A stretch of DNA of 44,444 nucleotides, taken from the IMG/VR virus record IMGVR_UViG_2531839661_000010; one strand, written 5' to 3'. Shown here one piece after another: positions 1,701 through 42,986 of the stretch; the first letter of the stretch is position 1, and each line of letters begins with the position of its first letter. The position numbers were made by a program, and so were the translations under genes. The notes beneath the pieces are model-generated. The model searched no databases, was not told the DNA's origin, and was given only the letters and a program-made list of their open reading frames with translations. This DNA comes from a virus (Duplodnaviria > Heunggongvirae > Uroviricota > Caudoviricetes).

Positions 1701-2570
<870 letters not shown>

Positions 2571-2630: not shown

Positions 2631-3185
2631 TCATTTATCTCCGACCGGAAACTTCTTATACAGTGTCGATATACCAACATCATAGATGATCGCCACCTTC
2701 TGGCGAGGAACGCCTGATGCAATTAATCGTCCGGCCTGCTCCCATTGTTCTGGTGTAAGTTTGGGGCGACGTCCACCAATTCGTCCTTGTGCGCGAGCTG
2801 CTTCCAGTCCAGCTTTTGTTCGTTCAACAATCAGTTCACGCTCCATTTCAGCCAGGGCACCCATCACATGAAAGAAAAAGCGCCCCATTGGGGTACTGGT
2901 ATCAATTGAATCCGTCAGACTACGAAAGTTGATGCCTCGTTCGCGCAACTCCTCCACCAGCACGACAAGATGCCGCATACTGCGCCCCAGTCGGTCCAGT
3001 TTCCAGACTACCAGCGTGTCACCTGCCGATAATGTCCTGAGCAGCTTTTTCAGTCCTGGTCTGTCGGACTTTGTACCGCTTATCTTGTCTTCAAAAATCA
3101 GCTCGCATCCTGCACAGTTCAGCGCATTACGTTGTAGATCTGTGTTCTGGTCATTTGTTGATACGCGTACATAGCCAATAAGCAT
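2631..3185 (-). CDS. Serine-recombinase DNA invertase (Gin/Pin/Hin/Cin family)
   Basis: MLIGYVRVSTNDQNTDLQRNAL...VVWKLDRLGRSMRHL...GINFRSLTDSIDTSTPMGRFFFHVMGALAEMERELIVERT is near-colinear with Gin/Pin as recalled; start placed at the MLIGYVRVST methionine (ATG 3185). Confidence 0.9.
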   Translation of the reverse strand: MLIGYVRVSTNDQNTDLQRNALNCAGCELIFEDKISGTKSDRPGLKKLLRTLSAGDTLVVWKLDRLGRSMRHLVVLVEELRERGINFRSLTDSIDTSTPMGRFFFHVMGALAEMERELIVERTKAGLEAARAQGRIGGRRPKLTPEQWEQAGRLIASGVPRQKVAIIYDVGISTLYKKFPVGDK

Positions 3186-3211
3186 GGTAGATCCCCCTGA
3201 CAAAAGCAGGA

Positions 3212-3586
3212 ATGATGCCATTTGCTCGTTATTTCTGCATTTTCATAAACGTTGGTTTGGGAGAAGCGGCGAAAAGGAATGTGGGGACTGGGGCGAATCA
3301 GATACCAGACATGTCAGCTTATTCATCAGGATCTGGCTGGCAAAAATTGCCTGATGGTTCAATTGAACAGTGGGGAAGAATTAATTTCCCGACTAACGCC
3401 GCGGCGGTATCTACAAATGTGACTTTCCCCATTCCTTTTACGCAGGAGCCAGACGTAGTGATTGTATATGACGGCGGTTTTGGTGGTGGGAATATGTGGG
3501 GCGCAACTAACTGGACGCGAACAGGATTTGTTGCGCATTGTAACTATGGATTTGAAGGTGGAGCTTTCTTTGCGAAAGGGCGTTAA
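3212..3586 (+). CDS. Alternative tail-fibre C-terminal variable segment, silent in this orientation
   Basis: Reading frame runs through the left crossover site in the same frame as the tail-fibre gene at the right site (VGLGEA vs LGLGEG); Gly-rich fibre-tip-like sequence; followed directly by a tail-fibre assembly gene. Confidence 0.55.
3240..3265. repeat. Invertase crossover site (gix/hix-like), left copy
   Basis: TTTTCATAAACGTTGGTTTGGGAGAA; 20 of 26 positions match the reverse complement of 5090-5115, including a 14-nt perfect block TTGGTTTGGGAGAA; lies just upstream of the invertase start. Confidence 0.6.
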
Positions 3587-3588
3587 TT

Positions 3589-4029
3589 ATGAAATATTTA
3601 TATATTGATAATCTGGCGTACCCTTACGCCCTACAGTCTGTTTACGCTGCAAAAGGGCAATGGCCAGAAGGAAAAGGCGTAGACATAGACGAAGCTATTT
3701 TCAGGGAATATTTCCATGACACGCCGCCCGAAGGTAAGCGCAGAATTACCGCAGGCGACGGAATGCCAGCTTGGGCAGATGTTCCTCCACCAACACGTGA
3801 AGAACAAATTGCATCAGCCGAAACTAAAAAGCAGCAATTGATTAACCAGGCCAACGAATACATCAACAGTAAACAATGGCCAGGTAAAGCATCAATTGGT
3901 CGTCTGAAAGGTGAGGAACTGGTGCAATATAATTTGTGGCTGGATTATCTGGACGCACTGGAACTGGTCGATACTTCCGGTGCGCCAGATATTGAATGGC
4001 CTACGCCTCCGGCAGTTCAGGCCAGATGA
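3589..4029 (+). CDS. Tail-fibre assembly protein, alternative copy
   Basis: C-terminus LDALELVDTSGAPDIEWPTPPA parallels the C-terminus of the convergent assembly gene (DAVTATDTSTAPDVIWPELPEA); follows the alternative fibre segment. Confidence 0.7.
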   Translation: MKYLYIDNLAYPYALQSVYAAKGQWPEGKGVDIDEAIFREYFHDTPPEGKRRITAGDGMPAWADVPPPTREEQIASAETKKQQLINQANEYINSKQWPGKASIGRLKGEELVQYNLWLDYLDALELVDTSGAPDIEWPTPPAVQAR

Positions 4030-4603
4030 CGTCCGGCGCTGTGCTGGTATCTGTTGCCGTCACCGCGTCAATGTAATCCAGCACAGCGTTAAGTCGGGTG
4101 TTTTCTGGCTGCGTCAGCTTCCGCCCAGCCTGTAATTTCAGTTGAATCAGACTGATGGAAGCCATTGCAGCATCAATCAGCGACTGGCGCTGTGCTTCTG
4201 CCGCTTCTACTGCGGCGCTATGCTGTGCCTCGGTATCCGTCACCCATTTCTCACCATCCCATTTATCGTATGGCGTTAACGGGGCGATAGTGGTTGTATT
4301 TTCAGGGTAATCACCCGGAACTGTGATTTCTTTGGTATCTCCCGTTTCGGTACTATAGACAACTTCACCGCGATGGTCTGGCACATATTCCCATGAATTT
4401 AAATCTACAGAGCGACAGATTGCATAACCAGCTTTATGTGTACCTGGTGCATCCAGACAGGAACATGCCGGGATACCGACTCCGACAGCGAGATATTCAG
4501 TTGATGTAGAAATATATTCCCGCGTTTCGCCATCATAGTTATGTACGATGATTTCCCCATCATTTAAAGCGTAACCGTCTTTTCCCAAAATAGCCTGTTC
4601 CAT
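4001..4603 (-). CDS. Tail-fibre assembly protein
   Basis: Immediately downstream of the tail-fibre gene (stop/start adjacent); conserved C-terminal motif shared with the alternative copy; 3' ends of the two genes overlap by 29 bp. Confidence 0.75.
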   Translation of the reverse strand: MEQAILGKDGYALNDGEIIVHNYDGETREYISTSTEYLAVGVGIPACSCLDAPGTHKAGYAICRSVDLNSWEYVPDHRGEVVYSTETGDTKEITVPGDYPENTTTIAPLTPYDKWDGEKWVTDTEAQHSAAVEAAEAQRQSLIDAAMASISLIQLKLQAGRKLTQPENTRLNAVLDYIDAVTATDTSTAPDVIWPELPEA

Positions 4604-5440
4604 TTATGCAGCCCTCACAATGTAGTTAAATGCAATGTTTCGCGGGCTACCATCACCGGCGCCGGAACTGACATGATTTGTTCTATCCATTCGTTTACTG
4701 TCATTTGTTGTTCCACTCCCATCCTTCCACGAATACAATAACCCGCCATCGCCAATGCTCAACTGCACCGCAAATACGGATGATGTACCTAATTCACCAA
4801 CATCTCTAGCCATGAGTGGGTTCCCTGTCCATCCATGCATTTCATGGTTATGTTCAAGGATAGATGCTGCCTGACTTGAAAGCAGCAGTCTCGCGGAATC
4901 AACACCTCGCCCATCATCCCACCCGCGAATAAACTCACCGCGCAAATCCGGTAATTTTAACTTTGGGTAAGCCTTTGCCAGTTTTGGGTACTCTTCGGCA
5001 GAAAAAGGTGCACCGTTGCATTTCAGCCAGCCTGTTGGTGGTGTGGCTGAAGGCCACGGAACAGGCACACCAACGGGTAACGCTGAGCCTTCTCCCAAAC
5101 CAAGGTTTTCGAGAGCCGTTGGTACCGTGCCGTCCGATTTGATATCACCAAACGGATTCTTGCGGCTCAGGTATTCAACAGCAAACCCCGATCTCAGCAA
5201 TTCAACAAAACCGGGCAGATCACCATTATCAAGCACATCCCGTTGCGTTTTGTCACTTACAAACTGGGCCAGAGCTGCAGCAATAAAGCTGGCCTGCCGA
5301 ATAACCTTATTGACTTGCGCACTGGATGCTTTCCCTGCTGTAAATCCGGATAAAAGCGCAGGCAACGCTTCCCATTCCTCCTGCGACATAACATTGGCAT
5401 TCCGATCAGTTGCAAACGCTTTAAAGTCATTTTTCGCCAT
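4604..5440 (-). CDS. Tail-fibre protein (constant N-terminal part plus currently joined variable C-terminal part)
   Basis: Start ATG at 5440 overlaps the upstream gene stop (ATGA); C-terminal part carries a tail-collar-like sequence; crossover site lies inside the gene at 5090-5115. Confidence 0.75.
5090..5115. repeat. Invertase crossover site (gix/hix-like), right copy, inside the tail-fibre gene
   Basis: TTCTCCCAAACCAAGGTTTTCGAGAG; imperfect 12-2-12 dyad around a central AA, resembling hix/gix sites as recalled. Confidence 0.6.
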
Positions 5441-6120
5441 CAGAGTAATACTCCCCATGCCCCTACATCAAAACCACTGATGAATTCGTTATCCATATCA
5501 AAACCAAAAAATTTTGAACCTTCCGATGGAGTTTCCACCGAAGGTGTTTCAATGCCACCCGCCCAAACCCCGGCGGCTTTTACTGTGAGATATCCCTGTT
5601 TAATTGCAGCAATTAACTCACGCGATACATCTGAAATATCAGTATCAGGAAAGAGCCAGACCGATATCGTCATGTCCTGGTTATCGACTATCTGCATTCG
5701 CAGTCCGGATCCTGCTGTCGCCGCGTCAAGAATTGCTGGAAGCGAATCATTCCGTCCGTCCCAGTTATTAATCGCAATCTTCGCTTTAAGGATGACACGA
5801 TAAGTTTCATCGCTGAGGTACATGTATCCGGAATCAGGATCGTATGGCCCCTGCCATACACCCTGATCATATCCAAGCCCGTCGGTATCCCAGCTGAAAT
5901 AGACACCTGAGATAGGCTGGCTGACAACACGGCTACGTCCGATCCACAATCCAAGAATGTCAAGTTGCACACCAACCGCAGAGTCAATATCAAATGCAGT
6001 AATCAGCCCTCTGGTGGCAGCCGCAACATCAATAAGCGGCCGGGTCATCAGATCAACATGTGCAAGAAATTTAGGTTTGGTGGCGTGGTAGTTCGTGATC
6101 AGTTCGGTGTATTTGCTCAT
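5440..6120 (-). CDS. Tail/baseplate protein (Mu gp48 / e14 YmfQ position)
   Basis: Position between baseplate J-like gene and tail-fibre gene; start/stop overlaps with both neighbours; family assignment is positional, not verified. Confidence 0.45.
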
Positions 6121-7316
6121 GACTCCACCGTTATAACGATATTTTCCGGTGTACAGGACGCAGATTCGTTGTATCTGATATCAATGTTTGATGACGACAA
6201 AGCCCCCGGGGATTTCCCAATCGTCAGTTCCTGAATATCGTAATAGCGTGCATTCCCGCCACTCACCACGCCAAGATTCGCCGGTGAGTAAATGCGACTT
6301 AAAAGGACCGAATCACCAATCATCAGACTATTGATATAGTCGGAAATAGCCTGCTGGATCTGCTGCCCTATCTGTGAGGTATAACCCGTAAAAACTTTTA
6401 ATTTAATCCGGGCATAAACAGGTACATCACTGGAACGCGAGAATTTGATTACATGGGGATTGCCGTATTTATCCGGAACCGTAACGGATGTTGTACCGTG
6501 AGTGGCTGTCCCCTGGCCTTTATTCCCTCTGATAGCCTGAGCAATATCCGTCACATCACCGCCATCCACAATTACAGCAACAGAGTGTGGCGGTAACCCG
6601 TTACCGTCCTCCGAACCAGTATCGTTTTCATAGAGTTTGTGGCGGGTTACACCGGTAACATTAGAAACAGCACCATCCAGTGCTTCAAATGGGGTTATTG
6701 ATGGCAACGCAACACTTTGCGACTGGCGGATACGTAACTCAGCATCAGTTTCTGCCGGAGAGCCAACAGTAGCCGCAGCAGGATTAGTTACCGAAACCCA
6801 GCCACGGGTTGGCGTATTAATTTCAGTGATAGTTCCAGCCAGCGCCGCCACTGCACCACTGACGGAACATGTTGCGGTCGCCATCACTGTACCATCCACG
6901 CCGACCACCACTGAAGCAGGCAAACGCCATATCACATTATTACTGTCTTTCACGCTGCCATTAATGATGGTTGTTCCGGCAGTTCCTGTAAGAAGCAAAT
7001 CAACCGTAGAGTTCGTCGCGCCTTTACGTGAAATACCATTTATTTTCACGTTACTGGTCAGTGCAGCCCCATAGCCGGTTGCCGGTGAAAAACAGTTGTA
7101 GACAGTTATCGCCATATTATTGGCATCATGAATCGCCAGCGCCATCAGAGCCACCATCTGGCCGTCTTTGCTGTCCGGTTCGAGGTAGGCATCACTGCCA
7201 TAAATCTGCTGAAAATAGCTAATCATGGTGCTGAGTATCGTCTGATAATCAGGCGCACCGATCCCCTCCGCGGTTACCTTTGCAGATAAACCGAGAGAAT
7301 CAAGGTTCAGAGCCAT
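6117..7316 (-). CDS. Baseplate J-like protein
   Basis: 399-aa protein in the baseplate J position of myovirus tail clusters; translationally coupled to neighbours. Confidence 0.5.
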   Translation of the reverse strand: MALNLDSLGLSAKVTAEGIGAPDYQTILSTMISYFQQIYGSDAYLEPDSKDGQMVALMALAIHDANNMAITVYNCFSPATGYGAALTSNVKINGISRKGATNSTVDLLLTGTAGTTIINGSVKDSNNVIWRLPASVVVGVDGTVMATATCSVSGAVAALAGTITEINTPTRGWVSVTNPAAATVGSPAETDAELRIRQSQSVALPSITPFEALDGAVSNVTGVTRHKLYENDTGSEDGNGLPPHSVAVIVDGGDVTDIAQAIRGNKGQGTATHGTTSVTVPDKYGNPHVIKFSRSSDVPVYARIKLKVFTGYTSQIGQQIQQAISDYINSLMIGDSVLLSRIYSPANLGVVSGGNARYYDIQELTIGKSPGALSSSNIDIRYNESASCTPENIVITVES

Positions 7317-7669
7317 TACGCCTCCGATGTAACAGTCGTTATTCCATAGAGAGTGTCGATTTCAGCGGAAAACATGACACGTCGGGTCGTGGTATCCACC
7401 GTCGTATTGAAAGAGAGGATTGATTTAACGCCCCGCGTTTCGAGGATGCGCTTACGGACGGACAGGTTGTAGGTTTCCGGCTTCTGCTTACCGAGTACGG
7501 ACTGGATCCACGGAGTCCCCTCGGTGGTGTCGAGAAACCATTGCCCATACCACAATTCGAATCGCGTTTTTACCGCCTGTGCCACGGCATCCGGTGAGTT
7601 AATCAGCCAGGTGTCATCACCGCTGCCAAAGGTGTAATCGCCATCGGCGTCTTCACGTCTGTATCGCAT
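7316..7669 (-). CDS. Small baseplate protein
   Basis: 117-aa ORF coupled between the spike-like and J-like genes. Confidence 0.4.
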   Translation of the reverse strand: MRYRREDADGDYTFGSGDDTWLINSPDAVAQAVKTRFELWYGQWFLDTTEGTPWIQSVLGKQKPETYNLSVRKRILETRGVKSILSFNTTVDTTTRRVMFSAEIDTLYGITTVTSEA

Positions 7670-8421
7670 CAGTTTACCCCGTCGGTACTGCTTCCACCGC
7701 GCTGAACACCACCATGAGTGTGCGTATTATCGATTGGCTTGCCGTTAGCCTTCACGCTACCCAAAAACTCAACAACACCAGTGATTTTTGAAGCCACACC
7801 AGAAACAACAGACCCCACCATGCCCCCCATCCAGGTTAACAGGCCATGAATGGTTACTTTCTCAGAAAAATCAGCCAGAGGGGCAACCACATCAAGACCA
7901 CCCGGAGCGACAATTTTAATTTTCCTGGTATCAGGATTAAGCTCAAAATAGGTGCTGCCATCGTCACTACGCAACTGTGTGGCACTGGTATTAATACCGC
8001 TAATCTTCCTCGCCTGCGACTGGGGGCCTACAATACAAAACGCATCCGATAAATCATGCATTCTGTCATCGACCGGTTCCTGTATTCCGCCGCTCTGCCA
8101 CCAGAAATCAATACAACGATCGGCAAAAACGACAAGACACTCATCCCCGGCTTTAATCGGAAACGTTAGCGTACATCCTCCGCCACGTGGGAATACCACT
8201 GGAACATCCACCAGCAATGGGTAATTTTTGGTAATGCGGTTGCCGTCATTATCCTTTTCAACCGAACGGATAGCAGGCTGCACAACCGCCGTCACCGCAT
8301 CAGGATCGAATGACTGAATAATGCCAGGCAAGGCGACACGGATCTGATTCTTTGTTGTTTCCCGTTCAGATTTGAATGTTTCGGCAAGGTCGCCGCTGCG
8401 GGTCTGGTCAGATACTGCCAT
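7669..8421 (-). CDS. Baseplate spike / assembly protein V-like
   Basis: Position and size; ATG at 8421 (ORF-track start 8442 is TTG and would overlap the terminator). Confidence 0.45.
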   Translation of the reverse strand: MAVSDQTRSGDLAETFKSERETTKNQIRVALPGIIQSFDPDAVTAVVQPAIRSVEKDNDGNRITKNYPLLVDVPVVFPRGGGCTLTFPIKAGDECLVVFADRCIDFWWQSGGIQEPVDDRMHDLSDAFCIVGPQSQARKISGINTSATQLRSDDGSTYFELNPDTRKIKIVAPGGLDVVAPLADFSEKVTIHGLLTWMGGMVGSVVSGVASKITGVVEFLGSVKANGKPIDNTHTHGGVQRGGSSTDGVN

Positions 8422-8440
8422 TTGGTAGGCTCCAGAAAGC

Positions 8441-8469
8441 AAAAAACCCGCCGAATGGCGGGTTTTGTT
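8441..8469 (-). terminator. Rho-independent terminator after the HEPN-like gene
   Basis: Stem CCCGCC/GGCGGG with 4-nt loop, followed by a U-run on the minus strand (and an A-run on the other side); sits between the HEPN gene stop and the next baseplate gene. Confidence 0.5.
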
Positions 8470-8485
8470 AATTCACTGAATGAGT

Positions 8486-8881
8486 TTAAACAGCTTCATC
8501 AGTCTTCATTTTTTCCCACTGAGAAAAAATAGTCTTAACCTCTAAGAGAGATTGCTGTGCCATTGCTTTATCTATTGCACAGCTAGTGAGGTCATAATCT
8601 GCTTCATTTCGAGCCAGTCTCTGTTGCTCAAGTTTGTAAGCCATGGATTTTAGGCTTAATGGATCATATGGCTCCAGTTTGTTTTCACTCTTATTTTTAA
8701 GATAAGAGATAAGACTGGAATGATGATCCTTCGTATAAGCAGGAAGACTGGTCAGATTCTCTTTTATTTCATGGTAAAGCGCATAATATGCCCGCGAAAT
8801 AGTATTACGATAACCAACTTCAGAATCCTCCGCAAAGCAACGCTCCGCTGAAGATAAAAACTCAGAGCTAGTTATAGGCAT
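8486..8881 (-). CDS. HEPN-like domain protein (putative RNase toxin/effector)
   Basis: N-terminal helix SAERCFAEDSEVGYRNTISRAYYALYHEIKENL with R-x6-H spacing, and a later RLARNEADYD motif; AT-rich; ATG with AAGGG upstream. Confidence 0.5.
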   Translation of the reverse strand: MPITSSEFLSSAERCFAEDSEVGYRNTISRAYYALYHEIKENLTSLPAYTKDHHSSLISYLKNKSENKLEPYDPLSLKSMAYKLEQQRLARNEADYDLTSCAIDKAMAQQSLLEVKTIFSQWEKMKTDEAV

Positions 8882-9638
8882 ATTTACACCCTTTCAAGCT
8901 ATTTCTTTCAACGGAAAAACGTGCAATAAGATTGCAATCATCAAGTAAATCGATTGAACAAATTTCATCTGCAAGTCGCATATTCATTGCAACCACCTGT
9001 TCAGGAGATGCATTAACTACCTCAACCAGATAAGTCCCACCAGATGCACCGTTGATGTCAGCACGATATTCAGTTGGAGGGAATTCAGCCATGACTCTAT
9101 GAACAGCAAGAGCAACTTGCATGTATTGTTCTGAAGAGCATCCTGACTTTTTGTATGCTTCATCCATATCGTGAATTACCTCCTGCAAGAAGGCTTCTGC
9201 GTCATCCCTATGTTCTTCTTGGGATAACATTTTGCAATGACGTCCAAAATATTCTACGCATTTTGATAGTTTCCCTACCAAATACGCAACGCCACCAGCC
9301 CTATAAGTAAACCACTTGGTTGGATACTTATCAGCTAAAGAATAGATGTAGTAGTCCGATTTTTCGAGTAGAGAAAAACGCTCAAGCAGCTTACAAAAAA
9401 TCCGCGCAAAGTTAACATCAGCATGTGGGAGGATAGCTTCAAGCATTTCAATCCCGACACTCACATCACCTTTAGCAATATGAGCCAAAGCTACAAGCGT
9501 GTCAGCAGGCGGAGTACGCTTAGAGCCATACTCCGAGACCACCTCTCGAAAGGTCCAAATATCAAGAGGTTGACCACTATTGATTATCTTAACCAACTGG
9601 TCAAAACGCTCTTCCGCTTTCAGTTTTGGTCTTGCCAC
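8868..9638 (-). CDS. Hypothetical alpha-helical protein, upstream partner of the HEPN-like gene
   Basis: 256-aa ORF overlapping the HEPN gene start by 14 bp; GTG start with weak ribosome-binding site, so the exact start is uncertain; no nucleotidyltransferase or Walker motifs seen. Confidence 0.45.
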   Translation of the reverse strand: MARPKLKAEERFDQLVKIINSGQPLDIWTFREVVSEYGSKRTPPADTLVALAHIAKGDVSVGIEMLEAILPHADVNFARIFCKLLERFSLLEKSDYYIYSLADKYPTKWFTYRAGGVAYLVGKLSKCVEYFGRHCKMLSQEEHRDDAEAFLQEVIHDMDEAYKKSGCSSEQYMQVALAVHRVMAEFPPTEYRADINGASGGTYLVEVVNASPEQVVAMNMRLADEICSIDLLDDCNLIARFSVERNSLKGCKYAYN

Positions 9639-9758
9639 AGTACGCTCGCTACTTATCTTTTGGTTGAATTTTATGTTCGCGTATACAGTTTAGTCAATCC
9701 GAAGCTCGTGCTGTTGAGCCGTTTCGCACAAAATCATCCTTGCAAAAAGGATGGGACT

Positions 9759-10100
9759 TCAACCATCAACCTTTTTACACGGGAAAGATCCGATGATTTT
9801 CGGCGCGTCCATGCTGTTCTGCAGCAGTTGGACATTCAGGAATCGCGTTTCGGTACTAGGGCGACGAATGTATTCAAAGCCGTAGTTGTTACCGTCTTTG
9901 GCAGGCATAAGCCCCATGTCTACTTTCAAACCATTGGTACCCAGTTCGGTGATTTTTTGAGAGGTAACTCTTTCACCGTTGATAGTCGATAACTCGCCCT
10001 GGTTTGCAACCATAGTGTAGCCACCGCATTTAACCGTGAAGCCATCCGCCCACGCGCTGCACGCAGAAAAGACAGCGAACAGAAAAATAATACCCCTCAT
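9759..10100 (-). CDS. Small secreted protein with signal peptide
   Basis: N-terminus MRGIIFLFAVFSACSAWA followed by DG (AxA signal-peptidase site; possible lipobox FSAC); start 4 bp after the upstream tail gene; hairpin downstream at 9734-9752. Confidence 0.5.
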   Translation of the reverse strand: MRGIIFLFAVFSACSAWADGFTVKCGGYTMVANQGELSTINGERVTSQKITELGTNGLKVDMGLMPAKDGNNYGFEYIRRPSTETRFLNVQLLQNSMDAPKIIGSFPCKKVDG

Positions 10101-10103
10101 TGC

Positions 10104-11165
10104 TCATCCCCTTTGCAAAGCCGATTGCGTATACAGATCCGCCGCGCCACGCGCTTCGCACATCATATCCATGTACCACGCCTGGCCCCTTGTGTCGCCA
10201 GTGTACATAATCCCGCGCACAATATAAACGCCATCCGTTGCGATGCTGGCAGGCTGCGATGTGGTGCCGCTTAGCGTAATATTTCCGTCCGTGTTCTGGT
10301 CGGTGATCTGCCCACCGGCCATCGCGATATCGTTATTCGACAACGCGGTACGATACACTGAAGCCTGATCCAGTTGAATGAGCCCGTTAACCCGGATGTT
10401 CGGATTAATAAGCGCGCGGACATTTACGCCGTTGCCGATGGTCTGCTGCGGCATGCCAATAAGCCCGGTAGCGCTGTTGAGCACAATCGCTTTGTGAATA
10501 TATTCATTATTCGCCACCATCTGGCGTTGACCGTCCACGAATTGCCATGTTGCGCCACATTGACCGGCTACGTTATCCATAAGATGCCGCGTCATGCCAA
10601 AGAGTACCCGCCCCCGGGGGAATACAGTAGCAGGCATTTCAGGCGTCAGGCCTTCAGTCGCGCCTTTGGCTTCGAAGTCTTTCATCAGCGCACGGTTCAC
10701 ATCAGCGACCGTGTAACCGGCAGCCAGCGTCTGTGAGGTTATACTGGTGGCAAAAGCCAGATCAGTATCTGCTGCCTGAATCAGGACGTAGGTATCAACC
10801 GGACTGTCTTTTCCTGTGACCGAGTAGCGAATTTCACCGCTGAAAATCAGTCCGTAGTTGCGGCCATCTCTCTGGCCCACGTCCGCCGCGTCAACTTCCC
10901 GCACGGTCCCTACGTCGCTTGCTGACACCTCCGGCGCGATACCGTCGTAACCGGCAATCAGACGCACTTTCGAAAATTCCTGCCCGGTGATTCGGTTCAC
11001 AGTATCTGCCGAGAGGTTATAAATTTTGATAGTCCCTACCCGGGACGCGCTGCTGATGTTGAACCAGTCGATCGTAAAGGTGACTTTGAAATCACTTAGC
11101 TCAATTCCCTGACCGTTCCCGTCCACAAGCTGCAGCTCGAAATGTCTCATCCAGTTCTGTGACAT
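10104..11165 (-). CDS. Tail/baseplate hub-like protein
   Basis: 353-aa ORF in the tail cluster between tape-measure-proximal genes and baseplate genes; assignment is positional. Confidence 0.4.
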   Translation of the reverse strand: MSQNWMRHFELQLVDGNGQGIELSDFKVTFTIDWFNISSASRVGTIKIYNLSADTVNRITGQEFSKVRLIAGYDGIAPEVSASDVGTVREVDAADVGQRDGRNYGLIFSGEIRYSVTGKDSPVDTYVLIQAADTDLAFATSITSQTLAAGYTVADVNRALMKDFEAKGATEGLTPEMPATVFPRGRVLFGMTRHLMDNVAGQCGATWQFVDGQRQMVANNEYIHKAIVLNSATGLIGMPQQTIGNGVNVRALINPNIRVNGLIQLDQASVYRTALSNNDIAMAGGQITDQNTDGNITLSGTTSQPASIATDGVYIVRGIMYTGDTRGQAWYMDMMCEARGAADLYTQSALQRG

Positions 11166-11167
11166 GC

Positions 11168-11470
11168 TTACTCCGTTGATACCAGTAAATGACTGCGGCC
11201 GCCCAGATCAGTTTTCGTGGGATAATCCTGTGTGTTGTCATCGCAGACCACCACCAGCTTAAAACCAAGCCCCATACAGGCGTACTGCGCCAGCAAGTCA
11301 GCACCAGTGACGAGAGGAATACCGGAGATTACCGGCTCCCCTCTGTCGTTCTGCAGGTCCATAATCCAGTAAAGATCGCGCCATATGATGCTAATCCGCC
11401 AGGTGACCCCCCCCAGGACGATGCTGAACTGCTGATTGTCCGCTGTCAGCGGAATTTCCTGAATTGTCAT
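11168..11470 (-). CDS. Tail protein (hypothetical)
   Basis: 100-aa ORF coupled within the tail operon. Confidence 0.4.
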   Translation of the reverse strand: MTIQEIPLTADNQQFSIVLGGVTWRISIIWRDLYWIMDLQNDRGEPVISGIPLVTGADLLAQYACMGLGFKLVVVCDDNTQDYPTKTDLGGRSHLLVSTE

Positions 11471-12057
11471 TATCCGCCTCCCAGTAATGACGCCACGTTA
11501 CCCGTGATGCTTTTCAGCAGTGAAGTATCTGGAGGCTTTGTGGTTTTGTTGCCGCTGTTCTGTACCGCCGACGTGCTGGCCCCTTCCTTCATGTTGGTTT
11601 TATCAGCAACGGTGATCTGCTGTGTCCGGGAGATAAGGACCTCCCTCAGGGTGAGGACGGCGGACAGGACGTTTTCGGTTGTCTTGTCCGTCGTCACTTC
11701 CAGCGCCCGGATCAACATGTTGCTGTACAGCCGTTTACCGGTTACCACATCGAAGGGGATACGGCTTTCCTGCAGATCCAGTAGCTCCTGATACGTCTGC
11801 TGAGGACTCAGGCCGAGCAGGCTGGTAGCCGTCAGGTTACTGGCAAAATCCAGCAATGCGCCGCCACCGGCGAAACCAACCTCCATCACCACTTCTGACG
11901 GTTTTTTATAGGCATGATCAGCGACAGCAGCCCCGACCTCTACCGGATGCTCTGTTATTTCAAGCATATCTGTATGCTTCTCTGAAATAACAACACTGGG
12001 AACAATCATTCCTATTTTTCTGCTCTGCTGATGAAAAAGTGTAGAGAGAATATCCAC
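11470..12057 (-). CDS. Tail protein (hypothetical)
   Basis: 195-aa ORF immediately downstream of the tape-measure gene, stop/start adjacent. Confidence 0.4.
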   Translation of the reverse strand: MDILSTLFHQQSRKIGMIVPSVVISEKHTDMLEITEHPVEVGAAVADHAYKKPSEVVMEVGFAGGGALLDFASNLTATSLLGLSPQQTYQELLDLQESRIPFDVVTGKRLYSNMLIRALEVTTDKTTENVLSAVLTLREVLISRTQQITVADKTNMKEGASTSAVQNSGNKTTKPPDTSLLKSITGNVASLLGGG

Positions 12058-14045
12058 TAACCCACCCTCACCTGATTACTTCGCATGACCTGAGCATTTG
12101 CAGACTGTTGCCGACGTGCAACCTCATTACCGACAGCGTGCGGATCTCCGCCACCGTAAATGTGGTAAGTATTTTGCTGGTTAACCTCTGTCACTTTGCC
12201 ACTAATTCCCGCCACGGCAGCCTTATTAATCAGCTCTCGAGAATAGATATTTCTTCCATTTTCATGCTGGATAATGCTGCTCATCAATGCTGACATGGTT
12301 TGCGGATCGCTCATATTCAGGGCAGCCCGGGGATCCACTCCCAGTCGTTGCGATACAGCCCTGATATACGCAGTTGTGTTGTTATTATCAGACGCAGGTG
12401 CCCAGGTAGAGATAATTTTCTCCACGCTGTTTATTCCACGTCCGGCGTACAACATTAACTGACGAGCAAGAGCCCGTAATCCATCAAAAGCAGTTTCAAA
12501 TCTGGCAAATCGCCCGCCCGGGCGTTCAAGAGAAGCCCCTGCCTGACCAGCAAAATTAAGGTTTCCCGGATTGTTATTCCGTTCTCCTCGTTTTGTAGCC
12601 TGTGCATATTGTTCCGGCTCATCATCACCAAACCAGCCGCGTACCGTCCGGCCCACGCTGCGAGGATCGAATCCCCAGTGCTCTTTAATCCAGTCGGCAG
12701 TACTGTTAGCGCTGTCTGTAACCATCGGCATCGCTGACGGATTTTCGCTGCCCTGATTAAGTATCTGTTTGCCGATGCTGACGGCATCAGCCCAGCAGCC
12801 ATCTTTGATAGCGTTGAGCAGGTCGGCGATCATGTTCAGCATTTTGCTGAATTCGCCCATCTGGTCGATGAAGTTGCTGAAATCCCACTTCAGGGACCAT
12901 GATTTGGGGTCAATATTGAGCAGTTTCGCCAGCGCTTTCGCCAGTTCATTAACAGACCCTTTCAGGTCACGAACCATCTTCAGCGCGGCATCGACCTCCG
13001 GCTTCCACTTGCCCCAGTCAATCAGGCTGTCGCCGCCTTCCTTCCAGGTCTGATAGTCCTCCCACAGAAGGGCAATCCCCGCCGCCAGCGCGGTAATGAG
13101 GCCAATCGGCGACATCCAGAACGTACTGTTCAGAATGCGCAGCGCAATCGTCAGCGCGCCAAACAGCGAGATGAGCTCCCGCGTTTGCTTATCCAGCGAT
13201 TGCCACCAGGTGATGAGGCCTGATGTTCCTTCAATCAGTCTGAAGAACAGCCGCACGATAATATCCCCGAGCGCCAGAATGCCTTTTATGGCTTTCGTCA
13301 GGGTCTGCTCGATACGCGGGAAGTTGTCCAGGATATGGCGGCGCAGAGTGTCCAGCGAACCCGCAAGCCCACCCGCAAGATTAGAGCCGATTTTGTCACG
13401 GGCCATGCCTGCCATCGCGCCAAACTCACGCAGGGAGGTCATAAATTTGTTGGAGCTTCTGGCCGCCTCGTCAGCATTGAAGCCGATAGCTTTCGCCATT
13501 GCGCTGTACTGCCCGGAGAAACCACCCACACCCCGGCGCATCGCCATAAGGGTATTTTCGTCAATGCCCAGCATCTGCGCATACTGGTTAGCCCGGTAAT
13601 ACGGCATGCCGCTGAGCTTCTGTCCTACACCTGTAAAAATAGCGGCCATGTCACGCATGTTACCGCTGGCATCCCGTGTCTGTACCCCCAGACGATTCAG
13701 AAATCCCTCAGCCCCGGGGTTATTACGGATAAAACGGGCAAGGCTCTCCAGTGACCCGCGCGCAGCGTCCACGCTGCCGCCAACCTGCGAAACCGCATAG
13801 CCAATAGACTGAATCCCCTGAACCGTCGCGCCGGTGCGCTGTGACGCCCAGTAGAGATTATCCAGACCGGAGGCGATCTTAGCCGTGAAGGCCACCACGG
13901 ACAGCGCAGATCCTTCAACAGCCAGCCCCATTTTGATGACATTTGCAGTTGTACCGGAGAGGACAGAACCGAACTTTTTCGCTCCTGCATCATCCACACT
14001 GAAGCCAAGCGAGACGAGGAAATCTTTAATAGTTTCAGCGTTCAT
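12057..14045 (-). CDS. Tail tape measure protein
   Basis: Longest gene in the tail cluster (about 660 aa), Ala/Gly/Leu-rich helical sequence, directly downstream of the chaperone frameshift region; ATG at 14045. Confidence 0.7.
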   Translation of the reverse strand: MNAETIKDFLVSLGFSVDDAGAKKFGSVLSGTTANVIKMGLAVEGSALSVVAFTAKIASGLDNLYWASQRTGATVQGIQSIGYAVSQVGGSVDAARGSLESLARFIRNNPGAEGFLNRLGVQTRDASGNMRDMAAIFTGVGQKLSGMPYYRANQYAQMLGIDENTLMAMRRGVGGFSGQYSAMAKAIGFNADEAARSSNKFMTSLREFGAMAGMARDKIGSNLAGGLAGSLDTLRRHILDNFPRIEQTLTKAIKGILALGDIIVRLFFRLIEGTSGLITWWQSLDKQTRELISLFGALTIALRILNSTFWMSPIGLITALAAGIALLWEDYQTWKEGGDSLIDWGKWKPEVDAALKMVRDLKGSVNELAKALAKLLNIDPKSWSLKWDFSNFIDQMGEFSKMLNMIADLLNAIKDGCWADAVSIGKQILNQGSENPSAMPMVTDSANSTADWIKEHWGFDPRSVGRTVRGWFGDDEPEQYAQATKRGERNNNPGNLNFAGQAGASLERPGGRFARFETAFDGLRALARQLMLYAGRGINSVEKIISTWAPASDNNNTTAYIRAVSQRLGVDPRAALNMSDPQTMSALMSSIIQHENGRNIYSRELINKAAVAGISGKVTEVNQQNTYHIYGGGDPHAVGNEVARRQQSANAQVMRSNQVRVG

Positions 14046-14222
14046 TATCCTCTCTCCATTTCTCAATGCGCCGCTGGTTATCCGCTTTTACCGCCAGATG
14101 GTCATTCAAGAGAGCAATGTCGTACAAATCGACAGAGCCATCTTTAAGTGCTGTATAAGGAATTAACCCGGCGTCAACCGGATTGAGAAGGTAGGACAGC
14201 CCGTCCGGCAGGCTGTTAAACG

Positions 14223-31835: not shown

Positions 31836-32330
31836 TCATTTCCAATTGCAAGACTGTGAAATTTTTTCCACAACCTTATCAATCTCAGACAAGTCAAACT
31901 CAACTACTTGCATAGTTGATCCATAAGGTTCAAACCCAAAAATAGCTTTTTTATGCTTAGCCAAGGTCTTTATAAATTGTATTGGTTGTGGAGCAAATGC
32001 AGAATCACCGCCTTCCCCACCTCCCCAAACACTCTTGACCGGCTTTCCGCCATCTAACCGCACTGTAATTCTTGGGTTGTCCGAACCCATATAATCATTG
32101 AATGATAAATAGGCATCTGTTTTGTTATCACTACAACGCAACACCAGTGAAGTTGCACGATCAGTACCTGCTTTGTTATATGAATCTGGTGATAAATTAA
32201 GAGCCACAAAGTCAGTCTGGTCAGTCATTTTATTTATCTCAGACTTTGTTATCCACGGCCCTAACTTCTCTACACCAGCATTTGCTGTAAACGAGGCACT
32301 TATAACAAAGGCTAAAATAAATTTTCTCAT
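31836..32330 (-). CDS. Secreted (signal-peptide) protein of unknown function, accessory insertion
   Basis: MRKFILAFVISASFTANA signal peptide; AGGAG eight bases before the ATG; AT-rich; inserted where ren would continue. Confidence 0.55.
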   Translation of the reverse strand: MRKFILAFVISASFTANAGVEKLGPWITKSEINKMTDQTDFVALNLSPDSYNKAGTDRATSLVLRCSDNKTDAYLSFNDYMGSDNPRITVRLDGGKPVKSVWGGGEGGDSAFAPQPIQFIKTLAKHKKAIFGFEPYGSTMQVVEFDLSEIDKVVEKISQSCNWK

Positions 32331-35158: not shown

Positions 35159-35268
35159 TATTAATTCCTATTGGTATTACAATGAATAAATAATAGCAAT
35201 ACGTATTAATCATAACAATAGCAAAACGTGTTTTGACCATCAATACGCAAGCGTATAAATTAAAACTT
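35159..35268. promoter_or_regulatory. Right operator/promoter region (OR, PRM/PR)
   Basis: Three dyads between divergent cI and cro: AATACGTATT (35198-35207), AAAACGTGTTTT (35223-35234), ATACGCAAGCGTAT (35243-35256); TATAAAT just upstream of the cI ATG. Confidence 0.6.
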
Positions 35269-35961
35269 ATGAAAAAAGAAACTCTTGCTGATCGCTTAAA
35301 CCTAGCGATGGAACAATCTGGAATGTCTCAAGGCGCTCTTGCAAAGGCGTCTGGCGTAGCTCAACCCACAATCTGGAGACTGACAAGCGGCAACGCGCGC
35401 GGCTCAACAAAAATTGTTGAAATAGCTAATGCATTGGGTGTTCGAACAGAGTGGCTCTCATCAGGCATAGGCCCGATGAGAAATGACGGTCAACAATTAG
35501 GGAAGCCTACTGCCAACCATCCCAAATACTTCAAGATTGACGTTCTTGATATAGAAGTGAGTGCCGGGCCGGGAGTCATCAACCGTGAGTTTGTAGAAGT
35601 TCTACGCTCGGTTGAGTACTCGTTTGACGATGCTCGTCACATGTTCGATGGTAGGAAGGCAGAAAATATCCGCATCATTAACGTACGCGGTGACAGCATG
35701 TCAGGAACGATTGAACCTGGTGATCTTCTATTCGTTGATATCACGGTTAAATCTTTCGACGGTGATGGTATCTATGCGTTTCTGTACGACGACACAGCCC
35801 ATGTAAAGCGCTTGCAAATGATGAAGGATAAGCTGCTGGTTATCTCTGATAACAAAAGCTACTCACCGTGGGACCCGATCGAGAAAGATGAGATGAACCG
35901 GGTATTTATCTTCGGGAAAGTTATTGGGAGCATGCCGCAGACGTATAGGAAGCATGGATAG
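35269..35961 (+). CDS. cI: CI repressor (HTH plus LexA-like autopeptidase domain)
   Basis: N-terminal HTH MSQGALAKASGVAQPTIWRL and C-terminal S24 peptidase motifs (GDSMSGTIEPGDLLFVD, HVKRL); ATG at 35269 (ORF-track start 35233 is TTG). Confidence 0.85.
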   Translation: MKKETLADRLNLAMEQSGMSQGALAKASGVAQPTIWRLTSGNARGSTKIVEIANALGVRTEWLSSGIGPMRNDGQQLGKPTANHPKYFKIDVLDIEVSAGPGVINREFVEVLRSVEYSFDDARHMFDGRKAENIRIINVRGDSMSGTIEPGDLLFVDITVKSFDGDGIYAFLYDDTAHVKRLQMMKDKLLVISDNKSYSPWDPIEKDEMNRVFIFGKVIGSMPQTYRKHG

Positions 35962-36041
35962 TACCAATTAAAAATTATCAACCGGGCATTGTGCTCATTC
36001 AGTAAAACAACTTAATTATTCATTTTAGAATGGAGAACTTA

Positions 36042-37103
36042 ATGGATACTTTAAAATATGAGAAATTCTCTGATTTTGATCACAATGACCCATTTTTTGA
36101 CTCTTTAAAAAAAGATTATAAAGAGTTTCCTCTTTGGTTAGAAAAAAAAGCCAGAGAAGGAGAATCAGCTTATGTGCTCTATGATGACAAGCATAAAATC
36201 GAAGGTTTTATGTATCTAAAAGAAAATGATGATGCAAATGACATTAATCCAGCGCTCCCACCAGGACGTCATCTAAAGATAGGAACATTCAAATTTGAAT
36301 CTAAAGGCACCCTTCGCGGACAACGATTTCTAAAAAAAGCGTTTGACCATGCATTTTCATCAAAATCTGATGATATTTATGTTACTGTTTTCGACAAACA
36401 CGTCCATCTAATAAAACTTTTCCAAACGTACGGATTTTACATTCATGGTGAAAAAGAAACACATAACGGGAAAGAGTTTGTATATGCGAGGTCTTTGCAT
36501 GAGCCTTATGGTGATATTTTATTAGATTACCCTCGAATAATGACATCAAGGGCCAACAAATATTTACTGGCGATTTATCCCGAATATCACACTAGACTAT
36601 TCCCTGATTCAAAACTTGTAAATGAATCACCAGATATTGTCAAAGATATATCCCATGCTAACAGCATTCATAAAATTTACATATGTGGAATGCGTTCTGT
36701 GATGGGAATGAAAAGAGGAGATATCATTGTCATCTATAGAACCGGAGACAAAAAAGGGCCAGCTCGCTATCGTTCTGTAGCCAGTACATTATGTGTAGTT
36801 GAGAGCGTAAAAAATATTTCTGAATTTTTAAGCGAAGATAGTTTTGTAGACTATTGTATTCGTTTTAGCGTATTTTCTGAAGATGAACTCAGAAAAATCT
36901 ATAAAGAACGTCGATACCCTTTCATTATAAGATTCACATACAATCTGTCTTTGCCAAAGAGACCCAATCGTGCTATTTTAATAGATCATGTGGGGCTAAA
37001 TGGTTCGCGTGCATTCCGATGGAGTCACTTTAAACTCACAAATGAGCAGTTCTTAAAGATCATCGAGTTAGGCAAGATAAATGAAAGTTTTATTATCCAT
37101 TAA
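36042..37103 (+). CDS. Two-domain protein: GNAT-like acetyltransferase-fold N-terminal half plus PUA/ASCH-like C-terminal half
   Basis: HLKIGTFKFESKGTLRGQRFLKKAFDHAF...IYVTVFDKHVHLIKLFQTYGFYIHGE resembles GNAT motifs A and B; C-terminal LLAIYPEYHTRLF...GMKRGDIIVIYRTG resembles a PUA-like barrel; GGAG six bases before ATG 36042; about 30 percent GC. Confidence 0.5.
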   Translation: MDTLKYEKFSDFDHNDPFFDSLKKDYKEFPLWLEKKAREGESAYVLYDDKHKIEGFMYLKENDDANDINPALPPGRHLKIGTFKFESKGTLRGQRFLKKAFDHAFSSKSDDIYVTVFDKHVHLIKLFQTYGFYIHGEKETHNGKEFVYARSLHEPYGDILLDYPRIMTSRANKYLLAIYPEYHTRLFPDSKLVNESPDIVKDISHANSIHKIYICGMRSVMGMKRGDIIVIYRTGDKKGPARYRSVASTLCVVESVKNISEFLSEDSFVDYCIRFSVFSEDELRKIYKERRYPFIIRFTYNLSLPKRPNRAILIDHVGLNGSRAFRWSHFKLTNEQFLKIIELGKINESFIIH

Positions 37104-37458
37104 GCCTGAGTTTGCAGAAAAAATATTGAACGGAACAAAGCGGTTCGAGTTTCGTAAAGGTATATTCAAAAATCCGCAAATTAGCACCGTTGTTATTTAT
37201 GCCACGATGCCATTAGGTAAAGTTGTTGGCCAATTCCGTATTGAATCAATACTAAGTGACGAACCGGAATCTCTTTGGAAAAAGACGGAAAAACACGCAG
37301 GTATTTCTAAGCAATTTTATGACTCATATTATTCAGGTAGAGAAAAGGCCTACGCAATAAAAATTGGTGAAGTGGAAAGATATAAAGAACCAATTCCTAT
37401 CTCTGCTCTAGGTAGTAATATTAAGCCACCACAATCATATCTTTACCTACCTGCGTAA
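37081..37458 (+). CDS. ASCH-domain protein
   Basis: N-terminus MKVLLSIKPEFAEKILNGTKRFEFRKG carries the GxKxxExR-type ASCH signature; 125 aa; start overlaps the upstream gene by 23 bp. Confidence 0.6.
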   Translation: MKVLLSIKPEFAEKILNGTKRFEFRKGIFKNPQISTVVIYATMPLGKVVGQFRIESILSDEPESLWKKTEKHAGISKQFYDSYYSGREKAYAIKIGEVERYKEPIPISALGSNIKPPQSYLYLPA

Positions 37459-41624: not shown

Positions 41625-41946
41625 GGCCTGTCAGTTTCTCAAGATATCCAGACCTACCGCCACCAACTGGATACGAACAGGCCGCCTACAGGCAACACGC
41701 AAAGACCCCACTAAACCAAAATCTCCTTACCTCACAACGCGACAAGCCTGCATTGCGGCGCTTCAGTCTCCGCTGCATACTATCAAGGTGAGCGCGGGTG
41801 ATGGCATAACAGAGGAAAGAAAATGTCACTCTTCCGCAGAAGTGAAATATGGTACGCCAGTTTCACATTGCCGAACGGTAAAAGATTTAAACAGTCTCTT
41901 GGAACAAAGGACAAAAGGCAGGCGACAGAGCTCCATGACAAGCTAA
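41596..41946 (+). CDS. xis: Excisionase (AlpA-like HTH)
   Basis: [26 protein letters not shown] helix-turn-helix; AGAGG before ATG 41596; 3' end overlaps the integrase start by about 124 bp, so the true stop is uncertain. Confidence 0.5.
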
Positions 41947-42986
41947 AGGCTGAAGCATGGCGGGTCAGCAAACTTGGTGAAATACCTGATATGACGTTTG
42001 AGGAAGCGTGTGTCAGGTGGCTCGAAGAGAAAGCACATAAGAAATCACTGGACGATGACAAAAGCCGGATCGGATTCTGGCTTCAACATTTCGCAGGGAT
42101 GCAACTAAGAGACATCACTGAATCAAAAATTTATTCAGCGATGCAGAAAATGACAAACCGGCGTCATGAGGAAAACTGGAAACTCAGGGCAGAAGCATGC
42201 AGAAAAAAAGGGAAACCTGTTCCAGAATACACGCCAAAACCAGCGTCCGTTGCAACGAAGGCTACGCATCTTTCATTTATAAAGGCCCTGCTAAGAGCCG
42301 CAGAGCGTGAATGGAAAATGCTGGATAAGGCACCAATTATTAAAGTGCCTCAACCAAAGAATAAACGGATCCGCTGGCTGGAGCCCCATGAAGCACAAAG
42401 GCTGATTGATGAATGTCCGGAGCCATTAAAGTCTGTTGTTGAATTTGCACTGGCAACAGGCTTAAGACGCTCGAACATCATCAACCTTGAATGGCAACAA
42501 ATAGATATGCAGCGCCGGGTGGCATGGATAAACCCGGAAGAGAGTAAATCAAACCGCGCAATTGGCGTTGCGCTGAATGATACTGCATGTCGCGTATTGA
42601 AAAAACAAATCGGGAATCATCACCGTTGGGTATTTGTGTACAAGGAAAGCTGTACCAAACCAGACGGAACGAAAGCGCCAACAGTAAGGAAGATGCGGTA
42701 TGACGCAAACACAGCCTGGAAAGCGGCGCTGAGACGGGCTGGTATTGATGATTTCAGATTTCACGACTTGAGACACACCTGGGCAAGTTGGCTGGTTCAA
42801 GCCGGAGTCCCGTTGTCAGTGTTACAGGAAATGGGAGGTTGGGAGTCTATCGAAATGGTTCGTCGATATGCTCACCTTGCACCTAATCACCTTACCGAAC
42901 ACGCACGGCAAATAGACTCGATCCTGAACCCATCGGTCCCAAATTTGTCCCAGTCAAAAAATAAGGAAGGTACTAATGATGTGTAA
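41823..42986 (+). CDS. int: Tyrosine integrase (DLP12 IntD-like)
   Basis: [35 protein letters not shown]-terminus and C-terminal catalytic motifs ([15 protein letters not shown]...RRYAHL); ends 14 bp before the tRNA 3' end. Confidence 0.9.

Follow-up and report, generated by a model that had tools for sequence, protein, structure and literature searches.

A HEPN-fold and TPR-repeat gene pair forms a mobile accessory cassette in the baseplate operon of a temperate myovirus-type prophage

Here we describe a mobile two-gene accessory cassette, or moron, carried by a temperate myovirus-type prophage of Escherichia coli (Caudoviricetes; IMG/VR record IMGVR_UViG_2531839661_000010), whose 44,444 nucleotides were analyzed as a whole and are referred to below as the window. 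The cassette occupies positions 8467-9758, in a slot between the genes for the baseplate hub and the central spike, and encodes a 256-aa TPR-repeat protein followed by a 131-aa protein with a HEPN fold of the AF0298-like HEPN-T subgroup. Our preferred reading, to which we assign a probability of roughly 0.55, is that the cassette is a mobile module resembling toxin-antitoxin (TA) or abortive infection (Abi) systems, in which the HEPN protein serves as effector and the TPR protein as regulator or sensor. The cassette and its immediate surroundings comprise the following features.

8467-9758, minus strand: variable cargo segment of the hub-spike slot, delimited by aligning its borders with those of three relatives whose cargo differs.
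9638-8868, minus strand: open reading frame (ORF) of 256 aa with a GTG start, the TPR partner.
8881-8486, minus strand: ORF of 131 aa with an ATG start, the HEPN-fold protein and predicted effector.
8868-8881, minus strand: 14-nt overlap of the 256-aa and 131-aa ORFs.
10104-11165, minus strand: baseplate hub (phrog_196 ‘baseplate hub’, 2.9e-89; weak PF22759 match).
10100-9759, minus strand: 113-aa signal-peptide ORF (phrog_3443), between the hub and the pair and outside the pair.
7669-8442, minus strand: central spike (PF18352 N-terminal domain, 1.4e-44, and an Apex motif).

Both ORFs represent conserved protein families and are thus real genes rather than chance reading frames. They overlap on the same strand, just as the initial annotation of this DNA had described, and the 14-nt overlap suggests that their translation is coupled. 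The AT-richness ascribed to the pair is also evident from the GC profile, with a GC content of 0.41 in the cargo segment against 0.494 in positions 5440-8442 and 0.536 in positions 10104-14066. The pair had been placed between two baseplate genes; the hub and spike do flank it, but the 113-aa ORF intervenes as well. The pair region is 100% identical to that in Escherichia coli E41 and 2018-10-2CC, and 99.7% identical to that in enteropathogenic E. coli (EPEC) E2348/69.

The slot that houses the pair is highly polymorphic. Among 5,426 complete E. coli genomes searched, 208 matched the query, most of them through the conserved flanks alone, and only 10 of these carried the cassette (seven nearly identical and three at 84%). 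Other relatives hold other cargo in the same slot: a 190-aa protein together with a YafO-family TA toxin (PF13957, 3.5e-17), a 170-aa gene in phage vB_EcoM-689R2, a 266-aa gene in Yersinia phage YP3, and genes of 77 aa and 138 aa in SEN34. A further 12 genomes (E. coli O8:H8 16F5M1D1 and 11 others; locus L022, 3586-4739) carry a divergent TPR-HEPN allele of 243 aa and 140 aa there. Its partner is related to the 256-aa protein by profile comparison (hhalign 97.4%, E 1.5e-11), and its HEPN protein, at 30% identity (E 3e-10), retains the RNAISRAYY..YH, H and R-x-x-A-D-Y signatures. The segment thus has the features of moron or hotspot cargo, namely polymorphism between collinear relatives, deviant GC and a terminator, along with a putative promoter. 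Exchange with a known toxin cassette and with a diverged copy of itself is the behavior expected of conflict genes and not of virion parts.

This bears on the possibility that both proteins are components of baseplate or tail assembly, or other virion proteins, as might be supposed from the location of the pair inside a baseplate operon and on the same strand, and from the fact that several of its other genomic contexts are tail modules too. We hold such a role to be highly improbable, given that the pair is absent from the collinear close relatives vB_EcoM-689R2, SEN34 and YP3, is present in so few of the E. coli genomes that match the slot region (10 of 208), and is found elsewhere both 3' of an endolysin gene and within the nin region of a lambdoid prophage. 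Its low GC, HEPN fold and flanking terminators (of which the upstream hairpin at 9753-9735 is not above chance) also speak against it. The earlier suggestion of an insertion between baseplate genes, rather than of a virion component, is therefore borne out by the comparison of relatives.

The two genes travel strictly together, in about 90 loci overall. A search of IMG/VR with the HEPN alignment yielded 163 loci, 80 of which were kept. An ORF of the ~257-aa partner family was found immediately 5' of the HEPN gene in 78 of the 80, overlapping it by 14, 4 or 20 nt or abutting it (0 nt); the other two loci end at a contig edge. The HEPN gene was likewise 3' of the partner in all loci found via the partner. 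The two families co-diverge (r 0.93), with the partner evolving faster (mean identity of 29%, versus 41% for HEPN). Most loci have the order found in the window: hub, small secreted protein, pair, spike. Overall, however, the pair occurs in at least six prophage contexts. Among these, it stands between the tail chaperone and the tape measure (Klebsiella phage ST405-OXA48phi1.3 type) or, where the tail module is lambda-like, between the tape measure and minor tail proteins; it also follows a gpK-like gene or an endolysin gene (4ok7, E 6.8e-75). In a lambdoid Lelliottia prophage it lies within the nin region, flanked by replication genes and by NinG/Q. Species-representative genomes that carry the pair belong to Yersinia, Citrobacter, Phytobacter, Trabulsiella, Enterobacter pulveris, Gilliamella and Pseudomonas (hhalign 95-97%), and the pair is probably present in Acidithiobacillus. 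In ST405-OXA48phi1.3 (MK416008; locus L148, 4252-4647), an intact 131-aa HEPN homologue lies immediately 3' of a 267-aa TPR partner; the deposited record annotates two small ORFs there instead (L148 4304-4435 and 4432-4647), and the HEPN gene was thus mis-called.

More distant HEPN relatives have other neighbors. Those in archaea and Bacillota are preceded by ORFs of ~190 aa with an MNT-like motif (GS..DxD-like), and ~170-aa relatives in Actinobacteria and Burkholderiales are followed by an ORF of ~550 aa, a different conserved pairing (loci L114, L124, L126, L128, L135, L138, L141, L143, L144 and L147). The TPR partner therefore seems to have taken the place of the usual MNT protein.

Assignment of the 131-aa protein to the HEPN fold draws on its predicted structure and on its orthologues. 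The AlphaFold model contains helices at residues 5-17, 21-43, 53-65, 74-96 and 105-130 and has the four-helix up-down bundle of HEPN proteins. Neither protein of the pair in the window had a match above threshold in Pfam, NCBIfam or PADLOC. Two orthologues of the 131-aa protein at 71-73% identity score 28.4 and 23.4 bits against PF05168, above its gathering cut-off of 22 bits, and three further orthologues score 18.4-19.7 bits over profile positions 8-112 of 117. A sequence search of the PDB with the family profile found 2hsb (AF0298, UPF0332; E 0.022) and two recent entries named ‘HEPN domain-containing protein’. The divergent O8:H8 allele gave a weak partial match to the PADLOC model HEPN_IX (E 1.6e-4, 36 residues). 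The recent, unpublished PDB entries 9xbd and 9xbc, ‘HEPN domain-containing proteins’ of 125/131 aa, have the same signature as the protein described here (SRAYYAMF...H...RNRSDYDL). One of them carries Phe for the motif Tyr, which suggests that the role of that Tyr is being probed by others; no paper accompanying the two entries was found.

Eight residues are invariant in all 62 unique HEPN homologues, at identities down to 20%: E21, R25, R30, H37, H54, R91, D95 and Y96. Two stretches had been pointed out initially as HEPN-like motifs. The RNEADY stretch (R91 to Y96) is rightly placed, as the canonical Rx4-6H site of HEPN proteins is found at the end of helix 3, at the helix 3/helix 4 junction (PMC3710099), but it has Tyr where His is expected. 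The RAYYALYH stretch (R30-x6-H37) falls within helix 21-43 instead, and the 131-aa protein has no canonical Rx4-6H motif. This second stretch is still relevant, because H37 is invariant and the adjacent E38, found in 42 of the 62 sequences, may be the conserved acidic residue of helix 2 near the HEPN site. In AF0298-like HEPN-T proteins and in AbiV, the Arg is kept and the His lost, and a second conserved His in an insert between helices 2 and 3 has been proposed to rebuild the site (PMC3710099). That combination is found here, with R91 and H54 present in 62 of 62 sequences and H54 located in the loop or helix start between helices 21-43 and 53-65, the insert position of the alternative His. 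With the canonical His absent, RNase activity is plausible only through this alternative-His arrangement, and the 131-aa protein is probably an RNase effector.

The same residues are informative with respect to a different function, in which the HEPN-T protein would be a non-catalytic module that binds a ligand or RNA. The pair would then have some other accessory use for the phage or lysogen, such as regulation, or counter-defense in which an immune signal or RNA of the host is sequestered. We consider this possible, if somewhat unlikely, since eight invariant charged or polar residues, R91, H54 and H37 among them, fit an active site, the alternative-His arrangement was proposed as a catalytic one, and the cassette alternates with the bona fide YafO toxin cassette at the same slot.

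The 256-aa protein is a TPR-repeat protein and not an MNT nucleotidyltransferase. Its model is confident (pLDDT 88.3, pTM 0.84) and shows paired short TPR-like helices at residues ~27-137, arranged as a tandem helix-turn-helix solenoid, long helices up to residue 184, and a beta-beta-alpha-beta unit at 191-243. Its description as a helical protein in the initial annotation was thus right for most of its length but overlooked the small domain at its end. An exhaustive profile search recovered 83 representative clusters of the partner family, nearly all of 250-260 aa. The family profile matches consensus TPR proteins in the PDB (1.5e-09), TPR Pfam models match 8 of 60 family members, and no PADLOC model matched the family convincingly. 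Neither the GSx9-13[DE]x[DE] motif nor the pol-beta fold of MNT proteins was found in the 256-aa protein, which agrees with the earlier remark that MNT motifs are missing and that the pairing would be unusual; a TPR protein in place of MNT is indeed an unusual partner for the AF0298-like HEPN-T subgroup. The TPR fold, together with an alignment of 60 members that has no invariant or near-invariant column, makes an enzyme unlikely, and we predict that the partner is a non-enzymatic regulator, antitoxin or sensor. A proposed relationship between its C-terminal beta-beta-alpha-beta domain and the non-TPR upstream partners of distant HEPN proteins in Planctomycetota, Bacillota and archaea was unsupported by HMM and hhalign comparisons.

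The nature of the partner also helps in assessing whether the pair is a plain addiction-type TA module, stabilizing the prophage or spreading selfishly with no anti-phage role. A larger gene followed by a small HEPN gene, with the two ORFs overlapping, is a TA-like layout; moreover, a YafO-family TA toxin is the alternative allele at this slot, and the cassette moves between prophages. Nonetheless, a large (256 aa) and fast-evolving TPR protein suits a sensor better than a labile antitoxin, the prophage carries other defense systems, and many prophage TA modules prove to be defensive. We therefore think that addiction as the sole role is unlikely.

Three candidate transcription signals lie at or within the borders of the cargo.

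8436-8466, minus strand: intrinsic terminator with a 10-bp GC-rich stem and a T-tract (hairpin 8466-8443), between the HEPN stop codon and the spike start.
9735-9753, minus strand: weak hairpin immediately 3' of the 113-aa gene's stop codon (z -0.47).
9668-9697, minus strand: Sigma70-like promoter, TTGACT-N18-TAAAAT, 30 nt 5' of the GTG start and inside the cargo.

The terminator, previously placed at 8441-8469 and regarded as the pair's own, is strong and real: its hairpin has a predicted free energy of -20.8 kcal/mol (z -4.9) and none of 200 shuffled sequences was as stable. However, this hairpin also stands at the slot border of relatives that carry the YafO cassette, the 170-aa gene of vB_EcoM-689R2 or the divergent O8:H8 allele. 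As it is kept across relatives with different cargo, it is the conserved right border of the slot and does not belong to the cassette. A cargo-specific terminator was ruled out by border alignment, in which the variable DNA begins at the 113-aa gene's stop codon and ends shortly before the terminator hairpin. The hairpin reported to precede the pair exists as well, at 9753-9735, but is no better than chance, with 52 of 200 shuffled sequences folding as well. In a Rosenbergiella relative a stronger terminator is found at the equivalent place, and the whole layout is repeated, with a terminator, a promoter-like site, the pair and two terminators.

The predicted promoter matches the consensus at 10 of 12 positions. 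It lies in a 33-nt block that is identical in alleles only 84-88% identical overall, with diverged intergenic sequence adjoining it. This suggests that the block is under constraint, and we infer that it is used as a promoter. We also noted that the spacer of this site, perfectly conserved among the alleles, contains CTGT-N8-ACAT, one mismatch from the LexA box core CTGT-N8-ACAG. By our estimate about 2-3 such matches would occur by chance in 44 kb, and SOS control is only a lead.

In the TA- or Abi-like module that we favor, the pair's own promoter would drive its expression in the lysogen. The TPR protein, standing where the MNT nucleotidyltransferase sits in classical HEPN modules, would bind the HEPN protein and keep it inactive as an antitoxin-like regulator, and might also sense a phage protein. 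When a phage infects, or when the partner is lost, RNA cleavage would be released and growth would stop, as abortive infection or TA behavior. The active site would be composed of R91, at the degenerate Rx4-6H position, and the alternative His54, with H37, E21, D95 and Y96. Analogy supports such a module, as AbiV is an RNase with the same structural neighbors and HepS is a prophage HEPN protein that acts in abortive infection when triggered.

A more speculative possibility is that the TPR protein directly recognizes a structural protein of competing phages, from the tail tip or baseplate, as its receptor, and gates a non-canonical HEPN nuclease that would rely on Arg91, His54 and Tyr96 for its chemistry. 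The recurrent adjacency of the pair to tail-tip, spike and tape-measure genes, on four or five independent backbones, would in that case reflect selection for linkage of the sensor to the prophage's own, non-triggering allele of the trigger protein. The model for this is Gifsy-1, which evades HepS through a tail-tip variant. We regard a receptor of this kind as doubtful and quite unlikely.

Several points weigh against the module that we favor and against the catalytic HEPN protein on which it depends. The 131-aa protein itself is below the Pfam HEPN threshold, with no PF05168 match at E≤1; its best PADLOC match, to HEPN_IX, is weak and partial (E 0.0089, residues 10-72); and its AlphaFold model is of moderate confidence (pLDDT 75.9) and gave no significant Foldseek match in the PDB. 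Sequence support for the HEPN assignment comes from the orthologues that pass PF05168 and from the family profile that finds 2hsb, the 131-aa protein on its own giving only weak matches. At the canonical Rx4-6H position, the end of helix 74-96 (R91-N-E-A-D-Y96), an invariant Tyr replaces the catalytic His, and we know of no AF0298-like HEPN-T protein with demonstrated RNase activity. No PADLOC system corresponds to the pair, and the promoter scan, taken overall, was only weakly above the shuffled background (8 sites versus 5.0 ± 1.9). Finally, the RNase activity, toxicity, neutralization by the TPR protein, TPR-HEPN interaction, defense phenotype and promoter use that the module entails are properties that we infer.

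The cassette is embedded in a myovirus-type operon for baseplate and tail, and every gene in that part of the window (5.4-14 kb) is on the minus strand. Taken in full, the window amounts to a nearly complete prophage; its integrase is encoded at 41823-42986 and its S24 repressor at 35233-35961. The position of the 113-aa ORF is itself variable, with a different 153-aa signal-peptide ORF in APEC-O117H42 and none in SEN34, and may be a second variable sub-slot, for instance for superinfection exclusion. Small secreted or transmembrane proteins were also observed 5' of the pair in unrelated contexts (loci L018 and L019). Elsewhere in the window, a Hin/Gin-type serine invertase (2631-3221, minus strand; Resolvase 1.6e-51 and HTH_7) adjoins oppositely oriented small ORFs and tail-fiber or collar-domain genes (3212-5458), a region that looks like an invertible tail-fiber switch of host range. 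A 164-aa ORF at 31836-32330 (minus strand), in a patch with a GC of 0.38-0.42, has a borderline Pfam match to VasI of type VI secretion (26.7 bits, cut-off 26.5).

Two further matches to defense genes were found, both in low-GC accessory positions. First, a 274-aa GIY-YIG (LEM-3-like) protein at 1746-2570 (plus strand), next to the tail-fiber end of the prophage, matches PADLOC PD-T4-3 (E 2.7e-140), an experimentally validated single-gene defense system against T-even phages. Second, two proteins encoded at 36030-37458 (plus strand), one of 357 aa and one of 125 aa with an ASCH domain, match PDC-M11A/B (E 2e-133 and 7e-52), a PADLOC candidate system. The latter cassette has a GC of 0.33-0.39 and lies directly 3' of the CI-like S24 repressor gene (35233-35961). 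With PD-T4-3 and PDC-M11 also on board, the prophage is a multi-defense element.

Cargo hotspots of prophages are already well known, as are TA and Abi modules built on HEPN proteins, and HEPN nucleases often serve as effectors in TA, Abi and CRISPR-associated immunity. The strict pairing of an AF0298-like HEPN-T protein with a TPR protein of ~255 aa, by contrast, appears to be undescribed: it corresponds to no PADLOC v2 system, its PHROGs families are of ‘unknown function’ only, and both genes carry the label ‘hypothetical’ in RefSeq, as they do in the single deposited phage with the pair. Nothing specific on a TPR-HEPN prophage system or on a hub-spike hotspot was found in the literature searched, and the E2348/69 protein accessions were not found in the main texts of that literature or in the part of the DefensePredictor supplementary files that was covered. 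The DefensePredictor system DS-28 (a 163-aa HEPN protein and a 252-aa protein) was considered and rejected, as it has the opposite gene order, a canonical RNSVAH motif and unrelated sequences. This family appears to have exchanged MNT for a TPR protein, and it moves as a unit among the accessory slots of prophages from Enterobacterales, Gilliamella and Pseudomonas. If it is a defense system, it would add a compact two-gene system that is present in a reference pathogen, EPEC E2348/69, and would offer a tractable model both for a non-canonical HEPN site and for control by a repeat protein. The hub-spike slot would in addition be a new cargo hotspot of SEN34-like prophages, in which further systems could be sought.

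The pair can be compared with several known systems. The known partners of AF0298/UPF0332 HEPN-T proteins (PF05168; PDB 2hsb) are MNT proteins, whereas here the HEPN-T protein is phage-borne and accompanied by a 256-aa TPR protein; the HEPN-T row in Table 1 of a 2013 survey lists MNT fusions, sacsin and restriction-modification neighborhoods, with no TPR partners (PMC3710099). The pair resembles HepT-MntA in being bicistronic, with the regulator 5', the HEPN gene 3' and overlapping ORFs, but its partner has no MNT fold or motif and its RX4H motif is non-canonical. As there is no MNT partner, neutralization by AMPylation as in HepT-MntA cannot apply. AbiV, a phage-defense effector, has been shown experimentally to be an RNase, with 2hsb, 1ufb and the sacsin HEPN as its closest structures (bioRxiv 10.1101/2024.05.05.592566). 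It shares this structural neighborhood with the 131-aa protein and is grouped with AF0298-like proteins by its alternative His (PMC3710099), yet it is 201 aa long, carries RNHKSKH in a flexible loop and is neutralized by RNA in a type III-like manner, whereas the partner here is a protein; a PADLOC scan of the 131-aa protein gave no AbiV match. HepS of Gifsy-1 (PMC13043305) is likewise a small prophage HEPN protein in an accessory slot that is thought to be inactive until triggered. It differs in its canonical R100-x4-H105 motif, in being a self-sufficient tetramer with no partner gene, and in its trigger, the siphovirus tail-tip protein J; no entry named HepS was among the matches listed in the PDB sequence search with the HEPN family profile. 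In the LA2681 family and AbiU2 (PMC3710099, Table 1), a HEPN nuclease is combined with a helical repeat protein (TPR or Sel1) in an operon or a fusion, as in our pair, but those HEPN proteins come from other HEPN clades and have retained the canonical Rx4-6H motif. Lastly, the slot is reminiscent of the hotspots of P2/P4-type prophages (PMC9122126), where alternative low-GC cassettes with their own promoter or terminator signals occupy a fixed position, the difference being that here the position is the hub-spike slot of a SEN34/Brunovirus-like myovirus prophage.

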